Assembly (NCBI GenBank): GCA_951406725.2
Contig: OX597830.1
Location: 682,001-746,000, forward strand
Source of the DNA: Octopus vulgaris
Taxonomy: Eukaryota
Length of the DNA: 64,000 nt
Reading direction: 5' to 3'
In this document: positions 3,767 to 62,844 of the stretch, in pieces
Layout of the letters: every line of letters begins with the position of its first letter
Position numbering within the stretch: position 1 is the stretch's first letter
The notes under the pieces: model-generated
What the model was told of the DNA's origin: nothing
The model's database searches: none
The model's input: the letters and a program-made list of their open reading frames with translations, nothing else
Position numbers and translations under genes: made by a program

Positions 3767-5008
3767 CAGACATGAGAGAAGTAAATAGACACCCCATAAA
3801 ACATCGTTATGTTTATTTTAACTTAAAAAGGTTTTCATTGTTTATTAATTGACTTTTTATGTTTCAGGGTCTATATATGACTGTTTAATCATGTCCACAT
3901 ACAAGAGAAACCTTGGAACTGACCGAAACTCCAAGGGGCCGTATTGTGGGTTAATTTGAAGGTGGACTTAGTCAACGTAAAATCACAGGAAATATTGGGA
4001 TCCTACCTTCTACAGTTAACAGAGTGATTGTACAATTCTCCAGAGAAGGAAAGGAGTCCGCACCACATTGTCCTGATCGACCAGGGCCCTTTAACAAACC
4101 TTTCAAATTGTTAAGAGAAGCGTGGAGTATAAACCTCGTTGCAAGACCTATAGCATAGCCAAACATCTTGATATCAGTCCCCGAACAGCTGTCAGGTATC
4201 TTCGCAAATTTGGCTACTATAGCAGAGCAGCAAGAAGGAAGCCACTTCTTCAACCAGCCAATGTGAAACGGAAAAAAAGTTTGGGCCAGTGAGATGGTGC
4301 AGAGGTCATTAGCATTTTGAGACACTGCCATATTCTCTGATGAATCCAGATTTGCTGTACTTCCTGACAGTAATCGAGTGTGGGCCTGGAGATTGACCAA
4401 GAAACTGATGTGAAAAAGTTGCAGCCAACAATGGAACGTGGTGGCCATTCTGTGATGGTCTGCGGAGCAATTTGGAGCAATGGTCGATCAGAGCTGGTGG
4501 AGTATGAGAGAAAAATAAACTCAGATAAATATGGGTCCATATTGCAGAAAGGGCGCCTCCCAATCTTCTACAATGGTGAAATTATTAAAGAAAACTCGCT
4601 CTTTGTGGTAGATGAAGATTTTCATATAGCTTAAAAGACCCAAGATTGGTTTGAAGAGAATGGCATTAGAAAGCTTCCATGGCCAAGTCAGTCACCAGAT
4701 GAGCCCTAGTGAACACCGCTGGTGCAAAATGGACAGGACACTCCGTAAAAAGAACAAGAAAATATCCTCAGGTTCGGATATTTTGAGACTATTGCATGAA
4801 ACATGGCATGAAATTCGTTAAGAGAATATTCGCCATTTGATCAGTAGAATGTCTAATAGGGTCCTTGCACTAAAATAATGCAAAGCTCATGTCTACTAAA
4901 TATTAGATATTCACATTATAATAATTAACAAATAATTTGAATGCATAATTTCAGATTTAAATAAATTTTAACGATTATAAGGTTGTCTATTTACTTCTGT
5001 TATGTCTG
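3767..5008 (+). mobile_element. Full-length decayed Tc1-type DNA transposon (about 1.24 kb)
   Basis: 25-bp TIRs cagacatgagagaagtaaatagaca (3767-3791) and tgtctatttacttctgttatgtctg (4984-5008); TA follows the right TIR. Confidence 0.9.
3891..4907 (+). pseudogene. Tc1 DDE transposase pseudogene
   Basis: HTH RGRIVG..GLSQRKI...STVNR, IFSDESRF, SVMVCGAIW, WPSQSPD and terminal STKY*; frameshifts and stops. Confidence 0.9.
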
Positions 5009-8021: not shown

Positions 8022-8190
8022 TTGGCGGACTGGTAGAACCGTTTCTGCGCCAGGCAAAATGCTTAGCAGCATTTCGTCCACCTTTATGTTCTGAGTTCAA
8101 ATTCGGATGAGGTCGACATTAACTTTTTTCCTTTCAGGTTCGATAAAATGAAGTACCACTTGAGCACTGGGGTCGATGTAATCGACTTAC
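8022..8190 (+). mobile_element. Meta-domain tRNA SINE, diverged
   Basis: gttctgagttcaaattc B-box region; tcgataaaatgaagtacc...ctggggtcgatgtaatcgactta. Confidence 0.85.
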
Positions 8191-12404: not shown

Positions 12405-13589
12405 ACTTTCATTGATAGATCAGCAGATGCATATGCTACTTGCGCAGCTGAGCAATAAATCTTCACTTTGTTGTGCTGTCTGCTAATCGTATGTTACCGT
12501 TCATATACAATACAATTAGATAATATCAGCACCGATTTCGCGCGACATTATTACTAATAAGACTGAGGTCAGATTTATATGCGAGATTTTTAATTTGTAT
12601 TTATATTTTTCTGTTACTGCTTCAGCTTGACTATTACGCACCGTAATTTAATAGAAACCTGTTCAAAGGGAATATTTCTGCTGTTTGCCATTGCTTACTT
12701 CTTACAATACATATTAGTTTTGATTGAATTAGTTTAGCGCTCGGTTTGAAAAAGAAAAATTATATGCAAGATATGTCTGCCATTTTGAGTGTGGAAAGAT
12801 ATTTGTTTTTTTTTTTGTCTTTATATTTCTTTGTCTCGTTTTCTTTAATATTACGGTTTTATTAGGAAGAAAGTCAACGCATAAATTTAGTAGGTGAGAC
12901 AAAGCTAATAATAAATTGATAGCGTGGAAAAAATTTATTTCAATTTTCCTGTTGTTTATGTTAAGGCTTCAAATAATCAGATTTATAGAGAATGTAGGTT
13001 TAGCACTAATTTGTAACTGAACATTCTCTTTTAAACGAGTTCAGGTGTATATATTGCAGTAGGTGTATATATTGCAGCTTTAAATCGAATATCTACGAAT
13101 AAAGAGGAATGACAAAAGTAACGTAAACAAATCTAAGCAAAACATTGAAGGGTCGCATTTGATAATAATATTGCTAGCAATCTCCTTCCGATAATTAGGT
13201 TTCACTTAAACAAAATACGAAAGAGAAAGTAATTCAGTTAATGATATAAGTGTTGAACATTAAAAGTATATGTAAGCTCTAATCAGGCTGCATCTGCGAG
13301 AAGATTTCAATTCCAAGTTGCGCCTGATTATGTTCCAGTACTATTATTTGGAGATGCTATTGTGATAAACGAACCATTCAATTCATTCTCCGCCCTCACT
13401 AAATGTGATATTATGTCATACATAATATAAGAGGTGACAGGTTACAATTAACCATGCTTGTCTTGTATCAGGCGCTCGGGCAACACGTAGTCCGTTCGAA
13501 TCTCTAAGCTGTGATTACTTTGTATGACATTGTCCATCCAATCTGAATAAGAAAACGAATGCAATTACAGATGAATATTACAATAAAAA

Positions 13590-13805
13590 TAAGGCAGCGA
13601 GCTGGCAGAGTCGTTAGCACCGTGGACGAAGTGCATAGTTGTATATCGCCCGTCGCTACGTTCTGAGTTCAGATTCCGCCTAGGTCGATTCTGCTTTTCA
13701 TCCTTTCGGGAGCGATAAATTAAGTACTAGTTCTACACTTGGATCAATGTAATAGGCATATCCCTTTCCCCAAAATGGCTATCCTTATGGCAAAATTTGA
13801 AACCA
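13590..13805 (+). mobile_element. Meta-domain tRNA SINE
   Basis: aaggcagcgagctggcagag head; catcctttcggg..gataaattaagtac domain; caaaatttgaaacc tail. Confidence 0.9.
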
Positions 13806-16632: not shown

Positions 16633-17090
16633 GAGTTTGTTAAATTGTGTGACGTTATAAACAATGTTTTCAAGTTTTCCACAAATTGGCCGTGAAATTA
16701 TTATTTTTTTTGCTTGTTGAAGTCATTCAGTGAGAAGAGTTCATAGGGAAATCATGTCAGATGGGTCTGGCAATAGCCAACAGCAATTACAGCAATGGGA
16801 GTGAAACTACAATAACAAGGAACTCTACCAAAACAATAACTAAGGCAATCAGAACGACAACAGCAGCCGCAACACCAGTAACAGCAATATAGTAACAATA
16901 ATAACTGAACAAATTTTAGCGCCGCTACCATAACTAGAACTGCAGTGGGAACAACATGGAACACACACACACACACACACACACATACACACACAGACTC
17001 ACATAAATACACATATGCATATATTTATATGTATGATAAAATAGTTATATGTGTGTCTGTTTGCACGTAAGCATATGTATAATGTAAATT

Positions 17091-17323
17091 AAGGCGGCGA
17101 GCTGGCAGAAATGTTAACACGCCGGGCGAAATGCGTTGCCGTATTTCGTCTGCCGTTATGTTCTGAGTTCAAATTCCGCCGAGGTCGACTTTGCCTTTCA
17201 TCCTTTCGGGGTCGATTAAATAAGTACCAGTTACGCACTGGGGTCGATATAATCGACTTAATCCGTTTGGCTGTCCTTGTTTGTCCTCTCTGTGTTTAGA
17301 CCCTTGTGGGTAGTAAAGAAATA
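17091..17323 (+). mobile_element. Full-length Meta-domain tRNA SINE with 17-bp TSD
   Basis: TSD atatgtataatgtaaat at 17073-17089 and 17324-17340; gcctttcatcctttcggggtcgattaaataagtaccag. Confidence 0.95.
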
Positions 17324-19548: not shown

Positions 19549-19833
19549 GGAATAAACACACAAATGTGAAACAAGGTGGAAAAAAGAGTACTCAAATACC
19601 AGTGGTAGAGTAATATGCTTTATTTTAAGCAGCAGAAAATTCAACAAAATCTGTTACTCTGAGTTTCTCGTTGCCATTCATCAGACAGTTTTTGCTAGAA
19701 TGGAACCGATATATCAATTCAATCTAGATTGAATTGATATATCGGTTCCATTCTAGCAAAAACTGTCTGATGAATGGCAACGAGAAACTCAGAGTAACAG
19801 ATTTTGTTGAATTTTCTGCTGCTTAAAATAAAG
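19548..19833. mobile_element. PLE pseudo-LTR fragment forming a spacer-less 216-bp palindrome between (TA)n tracts
   Basis: 19618-19725 is the exact reverse complement of 19726-19833. Confidence 0.85.
19757..19810 (+). ncRNA. Minimal type I hammerhead motif (mirror copy on minus strand at about 19641-19694)
   Basis: ctgt-CTGATGA-a[tg gcaa cg]a-GAAA-ctc a gag-TA-acag. Confidence 0.8.
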
Positions 19834-19880
<47 letters not shown>

Positions 19881-30005: not shown

Positions 30006-30269
30006 CTACATCTTCAACATCGTCACCTTAAACAACATCAATATTCACTTATTTTTGGAACTGTATAACTAAATTCTTATTGCGTTACATTTCTCACCTA
30101 CTCCTGGGCCCTGAATTATTCCGTGTCTGAATGCGCCACTCTCAGCTGGTGTCACACCTTATGAATCTTGCACTTTTGCCCACTTTCACCGTTCCAAACG
30201 GTCCAATCATAATCTCTCATCTCCAACAACTGACTTAGCACCAGACTAAGAACACCTGCTTCCCTCTGT

Positions 30270-30410
30270 TATTTACGTTCTTAGGTCAAATTCCGCTAGA
30301 GTCAACTCTGCTATTCATCCTTTCGGGCTTGATAAACAAAGTATCATTTCAGCACTTGGGTTGATGCCCCGAAACTGCTGGCCGTTTGCCAAAATTTGAC
30401 ACCGATATTA
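30270..30410 (+). mobile_element. Meta-domain SINE 3' half
   Basis: caaattccgc..ttcatcctttcggg..gataaa..ccaaaatttgacacc. Confidence 0.75.
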
Positions 30411-32285: not shown

Positions 32286-32499
32286 AAGGCGACGAGCTAG
32301 CAGAAACGTTAGCACGCCGGGCGAAATGTTTTGTGGTATTTCGTTTTTCTTTACGTTCTGAGTTCAAATTCCGCCGAGCTCGGCTTTGCCTTTCATCCTT
32401 TCGGGGTCGCTAAAGTACCAGTTGCATACTGGAGTCGATCTAATCGACTGGCCCCTTCCCCCAAAATTTCGGGCCTTGTGCCTAGAGTAGAAACGAATA
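32286..32499 (+). mobile_element. Meta-domain SINE with 11-bp TSD
   Basis: TSD tatttaacgta at 32275-32285 and 32500-32510. Confidence 0.92.
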
Positions 32500-32774: not shown

Positions 32775-32838
32775 AAAGGCTCTATGAAAGATTGATTGAG
32801 ATATTGAAATCTCTCTATCAATCTTTCATAGAGCCTTT
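32775..32838. repeat. Inverted repeat with 22-bp arms plus adjacent 14-bp direct duplication
   Basis: aaaggctctatgaaagattgat / atcaatctttcatagagccttt; gagccttttgggtg twice. Confidence 0.85.
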
Positions 32839-33073
32839 TGGGTGCTGAGCCTTTTGGGTGTTGTGCCAACTGCATTTCACAGGAGCAATTCTCATCAACT
32901 ATATTTTCATTTTACTGACTTTGTACCGATATTTCTCAATTCTCTCGATTCCTTTGCTACCCAACATTTTATTTTATAGTAGTGCAAATAATAAAACCTT
33001 ACACTGCTGCATGTTGTTTTATCCTCTAGAATTATATCCGATCATCTTTCTTCAATATTATGGTTAGTTTTTA

Positions 33074-33225
33074 AGGCGGTGAGGTGGCAGAAGCGCTAGC
33101 ACGCCGGGCGAAATGATTAGCGGTATTTCGTCTGTCATTACTTTCTGAGTTCAAATTCCCCGGAAGTCGACTTCGCTTTTCATCCTTTCGGGGTCGATAA
33201 ATTAAGTAACAGTTGCGTACTGAGG
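33074..33225 (+). mobile_element. Meta-domain SINE, 3'-truncated against a mariner fragment
   Basis: Head and Meta domain intact; tail absent. Confidence 0.9.
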
Positions 33226-33813
33226 TTGAGATGCATATCGCAAATATTGATTCGTTGTGTTAAGTGAATCTCTTTCAATTTATGTTGAACCCAGATATCG
33301 AGCTTTTTAACGAGTCCAAGACATTTTAAGTGAATTTCAATTGTTGTGTGTGATACATTTAAACTCTCTGCAATCGCTCGAACAGTTATATATCAATTAG
33401 ATTCAATTATGGCTTTGATTCGGTCATCATAAACTTCAGTAGGTCGACCAGAACGTTGGTCATCTTTGAGTGAAAAATCTGCAGAACGGAACTTTTTAAA
33501 CCAATTCTGGTATCTGTGCATTCTGTTAAGCAATCAACACCATAAACTTCACATATCTCTTTGTGAGCCTCAGAAGTTTTCTTGCCTTTATGAAAATAAA
33601 AGCAAAATACGGCGAAAATGTTCGCTATTGCACTCCATATTAAAATAGACCCAAAACAGCTGTAAACAAAATTACGCGCAATTTGCTACTAAACAAACTA
33701 AAAGTAATGGCTATCAAATGCCAAGAGGAACAAAATCATAACATTGAGAAAAGTTATTAAAAAAATGGAACTATCTATTTGCGAAAAACGAAATTAATTT
33801 CTTGCCAACCCAA
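33226..33813 (-). mobile_element. Mariner transposon 5' half (TIR and N-terminal transposase)
   Basis: TIR TA-ttgggttggcaagaaatt; MECNSEHFR...NWFKKFRS...RSGRPTEV...IWVQHKL (WVPHEL motif). Confidence 0.9.
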
Positions 33814-39479: not shown

Positions 39480-39520
<41 letters not shown>

Positions 39521-39521
<1 letters not shown>

Positions 39522-39746
39522 AGAAAAAGGGACAGGCAAAACAGGTTGCTTGACCGCATACCGAAAAAATAGAAATAGCAGTCAAGAATGTGTAATTCAC
39601 ATATGCAAAACATATGTTTTGCATATGTGAATTACAGGGTCTGTCATGCCCGGAGTCCAACTTTGATAGAAATAAGCATTCTTGACTGCTATTTCTATTT
39701 TTTCGGTATGCGGTCAAGCAACCTGTTTTGCCTGTCCCTTTTTCTT
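39521..39746. mobile_element. Hammerhead-less fold-back element in (TA)n
   Basis: 70-bp arms 39521-39590 / 39677-39746 enclosing a 46-bp perfect palindrome 39591-39636. Confidence 0.85.
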
Positions 39747-39872
39747 ATATACAATATATATACTGAACTTTACAGAAGTTCCTGCCGGTAATCGGCTATA
39801 TTTACATACCGAATTCTACCAGTAAATAATTGTTTTTTTTTAAAAGCCTTTATAGAAATTATTTACTCTTAT

Positions 39873-39915: not shown

Positions 39916-40181
39916 AATATATTACAATAATATGTTACATTACTCGATAGTCAAGATAAAACTCTGAGTTTCAGATGCCGAAGTGGAAATCCACAACACC
40001 ATCTCTTCGGTTATCTGGCTAGATAAACGAAGAGATGGCGTTGTGGATTTCCACTTCGGCATCTGAAACTCAGAGTTTTATCTTGACTATCGAGTAATAT
40101 AACATATTATTGTATAGATAAATTTCCTCTATTTACATAATATTGAGGTCTCTTTCTTTCTTTTGTTATCTTACCGTTTTA

Positions 40182-45399: not shown

Positions 45400-46129
45400 T
45401 GAATACATATATATATATACATACATATGTATATATATATGTGTGTGTGTGTCTATATATGTATACAAACGCACATACACACTCACACAAACACGCACAT
45501 TCACACATACATATTTATTTCACCGGCAATTATATAGAAAGAGTTTAATGATACACGTAAAGGTTAGCTTCTGTAAATGTTATTCAGTCGTAGAAGGAGA
45601 GGACAGAACATATGAATCTCCTTTCTTTTGTGCAGTCGTTGTTTGCTGTCCATTCTGAGTGTAAATATTTCCTCGTTTGTCACCAAGCTGTGCAGGTGGA
45701 ATTTCATTCTAAAATGTAATGTTCTTTGAAGATAATTCATCAAATACTTAGTTGAAAATTATTGCACTGAAGCTGAAATGAGTCGAAAAGGCACAATTGG
45801 GCTAGAATTCGCTGCGTCTGCTAGACAACTTGCTTATCCAGTGGAGACGCTGTTGTAGAATTGACACAAAGTATAACGGGAGTTTCAAAACCGATTATAG
45901 TCACGTGTTGCAAGGATGCTGGATAAAATCTTTTAGCTGCAAACTTGAATATGCCAGCATTATTTGTTTATATTTTATATTTCGTTTTAAAGATGACAAT
46001 CACCTCTTTAGAAACATTATTTGACATCTACACGAACATCTTGTCTTGGAGTCGTATCTGAATCAATGTTATAGACCTGAGGTCACCGTGAAAGATCGTG
46101 AGATGCTATAGTTCTATATTTACTTTATC

Positions 46130-46405
46130 TAACCACTATGCCATAAGACCTCGAGCATATGGCGTAGTGGTTAAGAGTGCGGGCTACTAACCCCAAGATT
46201 CCGAGTTCGATTCTAGGTAGCGACCTGATTAATAATAATAATAATAATAACAACAACAACAACCTCAAAAAATACCTGAGGAATGAGAACCCAGGTTCGA
46301 AATTTCCACAAGACACCTGAAGAAGGCTGGAGGGTATATCAGCCGAAACGTTGTGTTAACAACAAACAAGACGAGGACAAATATCCGTCGAATGTAAATA
46401 ATGTA
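46130..46405 (+). mobile_element. tRNA-headed SINE with hammerhead-bearing PLE-like tail and short 5' inverted duplication
   Basis: A box TGGCGTAGTGG 46160-46170; B box GAGTTCGATTC 46203-46213; (AAT)/(AAC) linker; hammerhead; 46130-46145 is an inverted copy of 46158-46173. Confidence 0.8.
46312..46357 (+). ncRNA. Minimal type I hammerhead motif
   Basis: gacac-CTGAAGA-a[ggctg..cagcc]-GAAA-cg-TT-gtgtt. Confidence 0.85.
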
Positions 46406-46657
46406 TCGTGAGGTGTGTAGACAGATTTTGAAGCATTTCCGTTCAATATGTACTGCTAGAAAATCGGAACGATTTAAAGAAATAAAGCAGTATGATTAAT
46501 TACTCTTGGATGCCACTGACATGAAAGCAATAGTTTGATTATTATTGAGAAGTTTAAAGTGGTCGCAATACGGTTAAACGATGCAATTGCAATAAATTAT
46601 ACAAAGAGAAAAGTGTAATATATTGTGTACTTGATTTCTGCAATGAGAGGAAACAAC

Positions 46658-51884: not shown

Positions 51885-52415
51885 GTAGGGGGTTACATCA
51901 CCGCTGTTTAGCCCTAGGAAGCATCGACGCTTCTTGCTGGCTTCGACACAGTTTTCCTGTGTTCTTATATACATTTACGAAGGGAAGACAAACACCTCCA
52001 GCAGCCAGGCCTGCATCTAGAGACACGCATGTTTCAGGATCATTGTCCATCATCGGTCTGGAGTATATAAAAAATTTAAAGGACTGGCCAGTTAAAGTGG
52101 ACGGTCAATATGCTAGATATAGACGTCAAAATCGCTATTTTCCACGAAGAATGTGTTCTCAAGAAAAAAATAACTCAGCACAAAACCAAAGTGTAAAAAA
52201 TAAGCAAGACAAATGAAAATATATGAAATAATAACGAAATAATAGGTAATCGTTATTATTTCGTATATTTTCATTTGTCTTGCTTATTTTTTACACTTTG
52301 GTTTTGTGCTGAGTTATTTTTTTCTTGAGAACACATTCTTCGTGGAAAATAGCGATTTTGACGTCTATATCTAGCATATTGACCGTCCACTTTAACTGGC
52401 CAGTCCTTTAAATTT

Positions 52416-52416
<1 letters not shown>
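51885..52416. mobile_element. PLE pseudo-LTR fragment with 167-bp fold-back ending in (TA)n
   Basis: Arms 52071-52237 / 52250-52416 with 12-nt spacer; hammerhead adjacent. Confidence 0.85.
52016..52062 (-). ncRNA. Variant hammerhead motif (CCGATGA core)
   Basis: tccaga-CCGATGA-t[gga caatga tcc]t-GAAA-catgcgtg-TC-tctaga. Confidence 0.75.
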
Positions 52417-52477
<61 letters not shown>

Positions 52478-62659: not shown

Positions 62660-62820
62660 TTTGTGATAGGTGAGTGGATTACATTGATCCCAGTACACAA
62701 ATGGTACTTAATTTATCGACCTCGAAGTGATGGGAGGCAAAGTCGACCACAGCGGAATTTGAACTCAGAACGAAGCGGCAGACGAAATACCCGGCGTGGT
62801 AACGATTCTGCCAGCACACT
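62660..62820 (-). mobile_element. Meta-domain SINE
   Basis: Reverse-complement match to 17091-17260. Confidence 0.85.
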
Positions 62821-62844
62821 GTCTTATGCCGACAACAATGTATA

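Follow-up and report, generated by a model that had tools for sequence, protein, structure and literature searches.

A window of 64,000 nt from the Octopus vulgaris genome, with 34% GC across its whole length, contains a short inverted-plus-direct insertion of a pseudo-LTR that begins with a tRNA-derived A/B-box segment. The direct arm, on the forward strand, consists of the tRNA-derived head (46153-46228, with its A box at 46160-46170 and its B box at 46205-46213), an (AAT)n(AAC)n linker whose length varies from copy to copy (46229-46261), and the 3' part of the pseudo-LTR (46262-46404), which stops at the more upstream of two preferred 3' ends. An ATG at 46283 opens a forward frame that reaches the reverse transcriptase (RT) ORF in full-length copies. 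Element positions are counted from the first G of the tRNA-like head (position 0 = 46153). The inverted arm lies on the reverse strand in two pieces: the inverted copy of the 5' end of the head with a decayed palindrome centre (46130-46152), and the end of an approximately 30-nt Penelope extension that corresponds to where the ORF body begins (46107-46122). The copy is palindrome-centred, with an internal jump within its inverted arm. An 11-nt target-site duplication (TSD; 46095-46105 and 46405-46415, forward strand, one mismatch between the copies), supported by the direct repeat and by a family-wide TSD test, encloses the whole. The initial annotation had recognized the A/B-box head, the (AAT)/(AAC) linker (both present at 46153-46261) and the 16-nt inverted copy of the 5' end, which is confirmed by its folding (z = -3.43; none of 200 shuffles was as strong); the second inverted piece, which is the family's 3' extension in reverse complement, and the TSD are added here.

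The head possesses both the A box and the B box by which tRNA-derived SINEs are recognized, the B box being preceded by A instead of G. Its score against the Rfam tRNA model is 16.3 bits, below the 29-bit cut-off, and ARAGORN calls no tRNA at the head; in a comparison with 20 tRNA genes of the same genome, covering six amino-acid types, two Arg genes tied.

The tail contains a minimal type I hammerhead motif (46312-46357, forward strand) with a predicted cut after 46352. Helix I (46312-46316/46353-46357) is followed by the core CTGAAGA (46317-46323), an extra A (46324), helix II of 5 bp plus one G-U pair (46325-46330/46339-46344), and GAAA-C-G-T-T, with the GUU triplet at the predicted cut. 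Rfam reports no hammerhead family at the locus. The motif, already proposed from its CTGAAGA, 5-bp helix II and GAAA, was read by eye against the features given for PLE minimal hammerheads in the part of PMC4209133 available to us (core boxes, an extra base between 9 and 10.1, G10.1-C11.1, palindromic 15.2-16.2, and a short helix I), and all of them are found. The hammerhead is probably weakly self-cleaving and dispensable for insertion. Only 2 of 55 non-anchored arms have 5' ends at the predicted cut (position 198), which is not significant. A 3-nt in-frame deletion at this site (positions 194-198; window 46350-46354) occurs in about 10% of arms at many loci and in both haplotypes (10 and 8 arms), while other tail positions reach at most 4%; it could be due to short-repeat slippage or be a scar of cleavage and rejoining.

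The repeat family and its coding element

The genome searched comprises 2.8 Gb in 227 contigs. First-look candidates numbered 1401 with the head and 1416 with the tail, and an exact hammerhead 25-mer occurs at 3921 places (reversed control, 0). As family copies differ by about 5% at non-CpG positions, the true number of arms may be roughly 20,000, a rough estimate. Counted by eye, head and tail co-occur at 23 of the 29 other best hits anchored on the head and at 21 of the 29 others anchored on the tail. When loci were collected in genome order by an exact head pattern, the tail accompanies the head at 15 of 20, and the remaining five lack it within 600 nt. The head-linked loci sampled show no other tail in common. 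Head and tail thus form the multicopy unit presumed in the initial annotation, and are linked at dozens of loci rather than at this locus alone. As at L003, L007, L133, L320 and L333, the (AAT)n linker is often interrupted or followed by other repeats (including LINE-like coding sequence), and these separate the head from the tail. By eye, the end of the tail (positions about 236-255) shows a 9-nt unit of varying number, whose length keeps the ORF frame.

The apparent SINE is almost certainly the pseudo-LTR of a protein-coding retrotransposon of the Penelope/Poseidon type. Five family loci have a common upstream extension whose translation is the end of an RT/endonuclease ORF, and in BLAST searches the head lies about 30 nt past the ORF stop codon in 27 of 29 other endonuclease-anchored loci, the two misses having internal deletions. 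On the other side, 13 of 26 junction-side alignments of N-terminus-anchored loci show the pseudo-LTR passing without a gap into the beginning of the ORF, the frame from tail to ORF being open from an ATG upstream of the hammerhead; exact 18-mers across this pseudo-LTR/ORF junction occur 137 times genome-wide. Full-length copies therefore carry the head-linker-hammerhead unit on both sides of the ORF, as a partial tandem, and the majority sequence of the element unit measures about 2.65 kb. All sampled copies are decayed, and the longest listed open frame has 569 aa.

The ORF protein matches RVT_1 (E 2e-6, just below the curated cut-off) and shares 37% identity with an 836-aa Anolis protein over a stretch of 568 aa. 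The Pfam GIY-YIG profile is unmatched; the C-terminus aligns with the GIY-YIG-type motifs of homologues, including P0070 (PF01541). A zinc-finger linker between RT and endonuclease is described as a Neptune/Nematis feature in the portion of PMC8557442 at hand. Such a linker is present in the L094, L097 and L105 families and absent here, which on that description places the element in the Penelope/Poseidon type. The tree separates the element from L094 and L097; it contains no labelled clade references, and its deep forks are weak.

The search for an autonomous PLE sharing the tail therefore ended with a coding PLE that carries head, linker and tail alike. What stands of the proposed SINE that borrows PLE machinery is the Penelope-type tail and insertion by Penelope machinery rather than by a LINE; the distinct SINE with a borrowed tail does not, because the whole unit is the pseudo-LTR of the coding PLE and the short copies show no variants in the body that are theirs alone.

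Other GIY-YIG PLE families were also considered as partners and rejected: 54 loci, retrieved by way of Pfam GIY-YIG and representing several zinc-finger-linker families, have no tail sequence in common with the unit, and the one tail match among them (L101) is a separate copy of the unit 2 kb away. Among these families, L091-L094 (e.g., L094 1437-3782, reverse strand) is a young one, with intact 781-aa RT + GIY-YIG ORFs, a zinc-finger linker, many near-identical copies and tandem repeats in the 3' UTR; a simple scan found no hammerhead in it. A second zinc-finger-linker family (L097, L095, L099, L112, and L113) carries a hammerhead-like motif of another kind, seen by eye in the 3' UTR about 480-540 nt past the stop codon.

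Insertion structure and 5' ends

Insertion structure was studied in 89 loci, i.e., 90 of the first 100 listed exact hammerhead places with one duplicate removed, all on contig 1; a few have common flanks (e.g., L220/L222 and L205-L208). An inverted partner is present at 53 of the 89 loci. The 3' ends fall near 248-255 or 277-279, two sites about 30 nt apart, and among 49 pairs with both ends defined the approximately 30-nt extension is on exactly one arm in 46, on neither in three and on both in none. Both preferred 3' ends lie inside predicted stem-loops, the second of which uses bases of the ORF start. TSDs of at least 10 nt, with one mismatch allowed, flank 39 of 70 units (35 of 47 pairs and 4 of 23 solos), against 1.2% for 600 shuffled flank pairs; the test omits 19 loci with fuzzy or broken ends. 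The initial annotation had asked for inverted ends to be counted against TSDs and had regarded ordinary TSDs as contrary to PLE insertion. They are abundant, yet compatible with it, since TSDs of 8-10 bp are reported for Penelope in the accessible part of PMC3846280. In PAc of Anolis carolinensis, RT begins at two internal sites, which determine the extension, and elongates both DNA strands (PMC11167929); by analogy, the insertion anatomy matches this mechanism. Head-to-tail tandem arrays, which characterize retrozymes, do not prevail: head-to-head pairs and solos dominate in the 89 loci, and short head-to-tail tandems are rare (L200 and L264).

About two thirds of the copies that reach the tRNA segment end exactly at its 5' end. 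Among the 88 arms of the 89-locus sample that reach the head, 25 end within it, 45 at -19 to +4 (40 of these at -8 to +3) and 18 in the ORF, with no end between -65 and -20. Of arms still running at +4, 40/63 thus end within -8 to +3 and 45/63 within -19 to +4, which corresponds to an end rate per nt of 0.074 at the head start; within the head the rate is 0.0043, and in the ORF 0.0022. The pattern recurs when only non-anchored arms are counted (12 of 18 end at the head start) and in a head-anchored sample (12 of 15, with two further arms at -20 and -26). Genome-wide, exact 20-mers number 943 at about -190, 1027 at about -36 and 5148 at +28, that is, an 8% loss over 155 nt followed by a 5-fold step.

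The head start coincides with a hairpin (-14 to +9, -11.6 kcal/mol) that is the second strongest of the element. The strongest stops 2 of 7 arms, while ORF hairpins of -9.7, -11.0 and -10.0 kcal/mol stop 0/22, 1/25 and 1/22, respectively (2/69 in total). In 15 of 17 short arms that include -7 (arms without ORF continuation, one coding-type arm having been removed by eye), position -8 is A, as in a palindromic leader, where the coding element has T. Split by eye, nine of these 15 arms keep 1-5 nt of the leader and six form full palindromic junctions. Either an RNA start near -10 in a copy with a palindromic 5' side or cDNA fold-back with a quick jump explains this leader. Three full-length loci have an upstream pseudo-LTR with a head, and two of them (L285 and L288) run past the presumed start, which indicates that longer tandem templates exist.

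Origin of the short copies

A start 17 nt ahead of the A box is in keeping with a tRNA-type Pol III promoter. On balance, we favour the reading that the tRNA segment is an internal Pol III promoter responsible for the short copies, which constitute no independent lineage. Transcription would begin about 10 nt upstream of the tRNA-like G, at a distance of 17 nt from the A box, and so set most template 5' ends. The element's RT/endonuclease would nick AT-rich DNA and prime inside the RNA at two sites past the hammerhead, as does anole PAc in vitro; two cDNAs would then reach the RNA 5' end, run off it and be joined head to head, leaving inverted arms within one TSD. PAc RT needs RNA to +172 of its ORF (PMC11167929). 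If the octopus RT likewise needed RNA past the start sites, solo short copies would be dead ends unable to reseed, and the templates would be the pseudo-LTR/ORF junctions of full-length copies; this condition is taken from one homologue.

A stronger version, in which a coding retrotransposon has switched to a tRNA-type Pol III promoter (with its start in the upstream pseudo-LTR, no T4 in 2.65 kb and its own RT) and now yields mostly SINE-like short copies, is held only tentatively. If true, we would here be seeing the birth of a SINE within its autonomous partner, and the first PLE-mobilized Pol III element whose partner is known. The 2.65-kb majority sequence has no sense-strand run of four T, against 4.7 expected by base shuffle (P 0.005), 2.6 under a first-order (P 0.08) and 1.4 under a second-order model (P 0.25), and 1.6 + 0.4 under a codon shuffle; two other PLE families have eight such runs each and a third has one. 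With no such run, Pol III could read through the element, but the deficit loses its significance under models that preserve dinucleotides or codons. The element protein may come from Pol II or read-through transcripts.

In three RNA-seq runs of a related organism, placed on L219, the family is present with its extension, at equal depth in both directions. Depth is higher in the tail than in the head and higher in the head than in the ORF, a profile resembling copy number, and the fragmented reads show no sharp ends; 79-84% of the placed reads continue into unlike sequence, which points to many embedded copies. Such RNA-seq fits the presence or absence of Pol III RNA alike and neither shows nor excludes it.

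Ordinary Penelope 5' truncation is a less probable explanation, albeit one that deserves weight. Here the tRNA segment would be a captured passenger in a Pol II RNA, and the cDNA would fold back on the palindrome at the head start and then jump. The strong hairpin at -14 to +9 and the palindromic leader of the short arms suit this explanation, and the excerpts of PMC3846280 describe 5' palindromes in A. vaga Penelope pseudo-LTRs and report no tRNA segment in them. The strongest hairpin does stop 2/7 arms, yet those of strength similar to that at the head start stop only the 2/69 given above, and 26 of 45 ends in the BLAST alignments fall at -4 to +3, before a cDNA hairpin could close. Palindrome-centred junctions, as fold-back predicts, are found in 6 of 53 pairs, but this amounts to only 6 of the 36 units with a head-start end. 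The leader mostly stops after 1-5 nt, so that a fixed RNA end fits better than processive self-copying, even though no RNA ends were seen in the fragmented RNA-seq.

That short genomic copies are themselves transcribed and mobilized in trans by the PLE, as a self-propagating SINE lineage, appears improbable. There are about five short copies to every ORF-linked one; the short copies possess a 5' leader of their own and contain no internal T4 terminator, and their heads are slightly less divergent (4.8% vs 5.8%), all of which such a lineage would lead one to expect. However, a comparison of 45 short with 71 ORF-linked arms yielded no diagnostic site among 257 after correction (best P 0.005, uncorrected), and both haplotypes of three linked sites are found in both classes (17 and 9 short, 9 and 11 long). 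These subfamily alleles common to short and coding-linked copies suggest, for this modest sample, that no independent SINE lineage is seen; a non-autonomous family distinct from its partner and with its own source copies, by which a SINE is defined, was likewise not found among the 45 and 71 arms. Moreover, among 68 extension-bearing arms of a genome-order sample none goes further than 18 nt into the ORF, whereas the PAc RT requires RNA far beyond that point. A chance meeting of head and tail here, by insertion of a PLE fragment into a SINE microsatellite, would account for the five of 20 head-anchored loci lacking a tail, but is refuted by the genome-wide co-occurrence, the head after the ORF stop in 27/29 loci and the linkage and junctions, which are constant in the coding element and at dozens of loci, and has practically no probability left.

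Relation to known elements

The comparisons in this section, apart from that with SINE2, refer to the available parts of the papers cited. The octopus element resembles PAc (PMC11167929) and Adineta vaga Penelope (PMC3846280) in its single ORF with RT and C-terminal GIY-YIG-type domains, in a pseudo-LTR that overlaps the ORF start and includes the hammerhead, and in two 3' ends about 30 nt apart, an inverted 5' arm and TSDs. Unlike theirs, which are described with Pol II-type features (TATA/Inr, intron) or none, its pseudo-LTR has a tRNA-derived A/B-box segment at its start. PLEs are already known for hammerheads in their pseudo-LTRs and for inverted arms, extensions and TSDs; unusual here are the tRNA segment inside a coding element's pseudo-LTR and the fact that most copies end at the tRNA 5' end.

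The schistosome SINE-like elements SM-alpha and Sj-alpha also combine a Pol III-type promoter and a following hammerhead in a short repeat; these are non-coding tandem repeats for which no coding partner with the whole unit is described (PMC6765202), whereas in octopus the copies are dispersed in head-to-head arrangement and have the same sequence as a coding PLE's terminus. Non-LTR retrozymes are likewise non-coding hammerhead repeats derived from or mobilized by PLE pseudo-LTRs, but they form head-to-tail tandem arrays and no tRNA head is reported for them (PMC7761336; bioRxiv 10.64898/2026.07.22.740005). TRIMp3 elements (Cassandra, Helenus, and Ajax) share a small-RNA-derived Pol III promoter within the terminal repeat; they are non-autonomous LTR elements whose author expects autonomous partners without such repeats (PMC10886601), whereas in octopus the coding element itself carries the putative promoter segment. 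With tRNA-derived SINEs (SINE2), the unit has in common a tRNA head with A and B boxes, a microsatellite and a 3' part recognized by RT; it differs in that no independent lineage is seen, the partner is a PLE, and the whole unit, beyond the tail, belongs to that partner.

No PLE with a tRNA-headed pseudo-LTR was found in the open literature, while Repbase, Dfam, supplements and subscription journals lie outside that search and may catalogue the family; the portions of cephalopod repeat papers, the squid genome paper, SINEBase and the Repbase review that were available contain no coding PLE of this kind. In the literature searched, as far as its accessible text goes, SINEs are described as LINE-dependent, and terminal repeats with Pol III promoters are described for non-coding elements only. 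A coding Penelope element whose pseudo-LTR has a tRNA segment exactly at its 5' boundary would provide a route by which a SINE could arise within its partner, and makes it possible to test whether Pol III can supply a PLE reverse transcriptase with RNA. Thousands of natural insertions agree with the two-start-site mechanism of PAc in vitro. Such pseudo-LTRs are also prone to mis-annotation as SINEs.

The window contains further repeats. Long palindromes of 64-360 nt, 80-99% self-complementary (19613-19838, 32775-32838, 39504-39762, 39923-40114, and 52064-52423), are MITE-like or fold-back elements. Another dispersed repeat of 100-180 nt is present in seven copies with 70-85% identity (8024-8189, 13586-13767, 17086-17268, 30265-30365, 32286-32449, 33071-33232, and 62670-62826).
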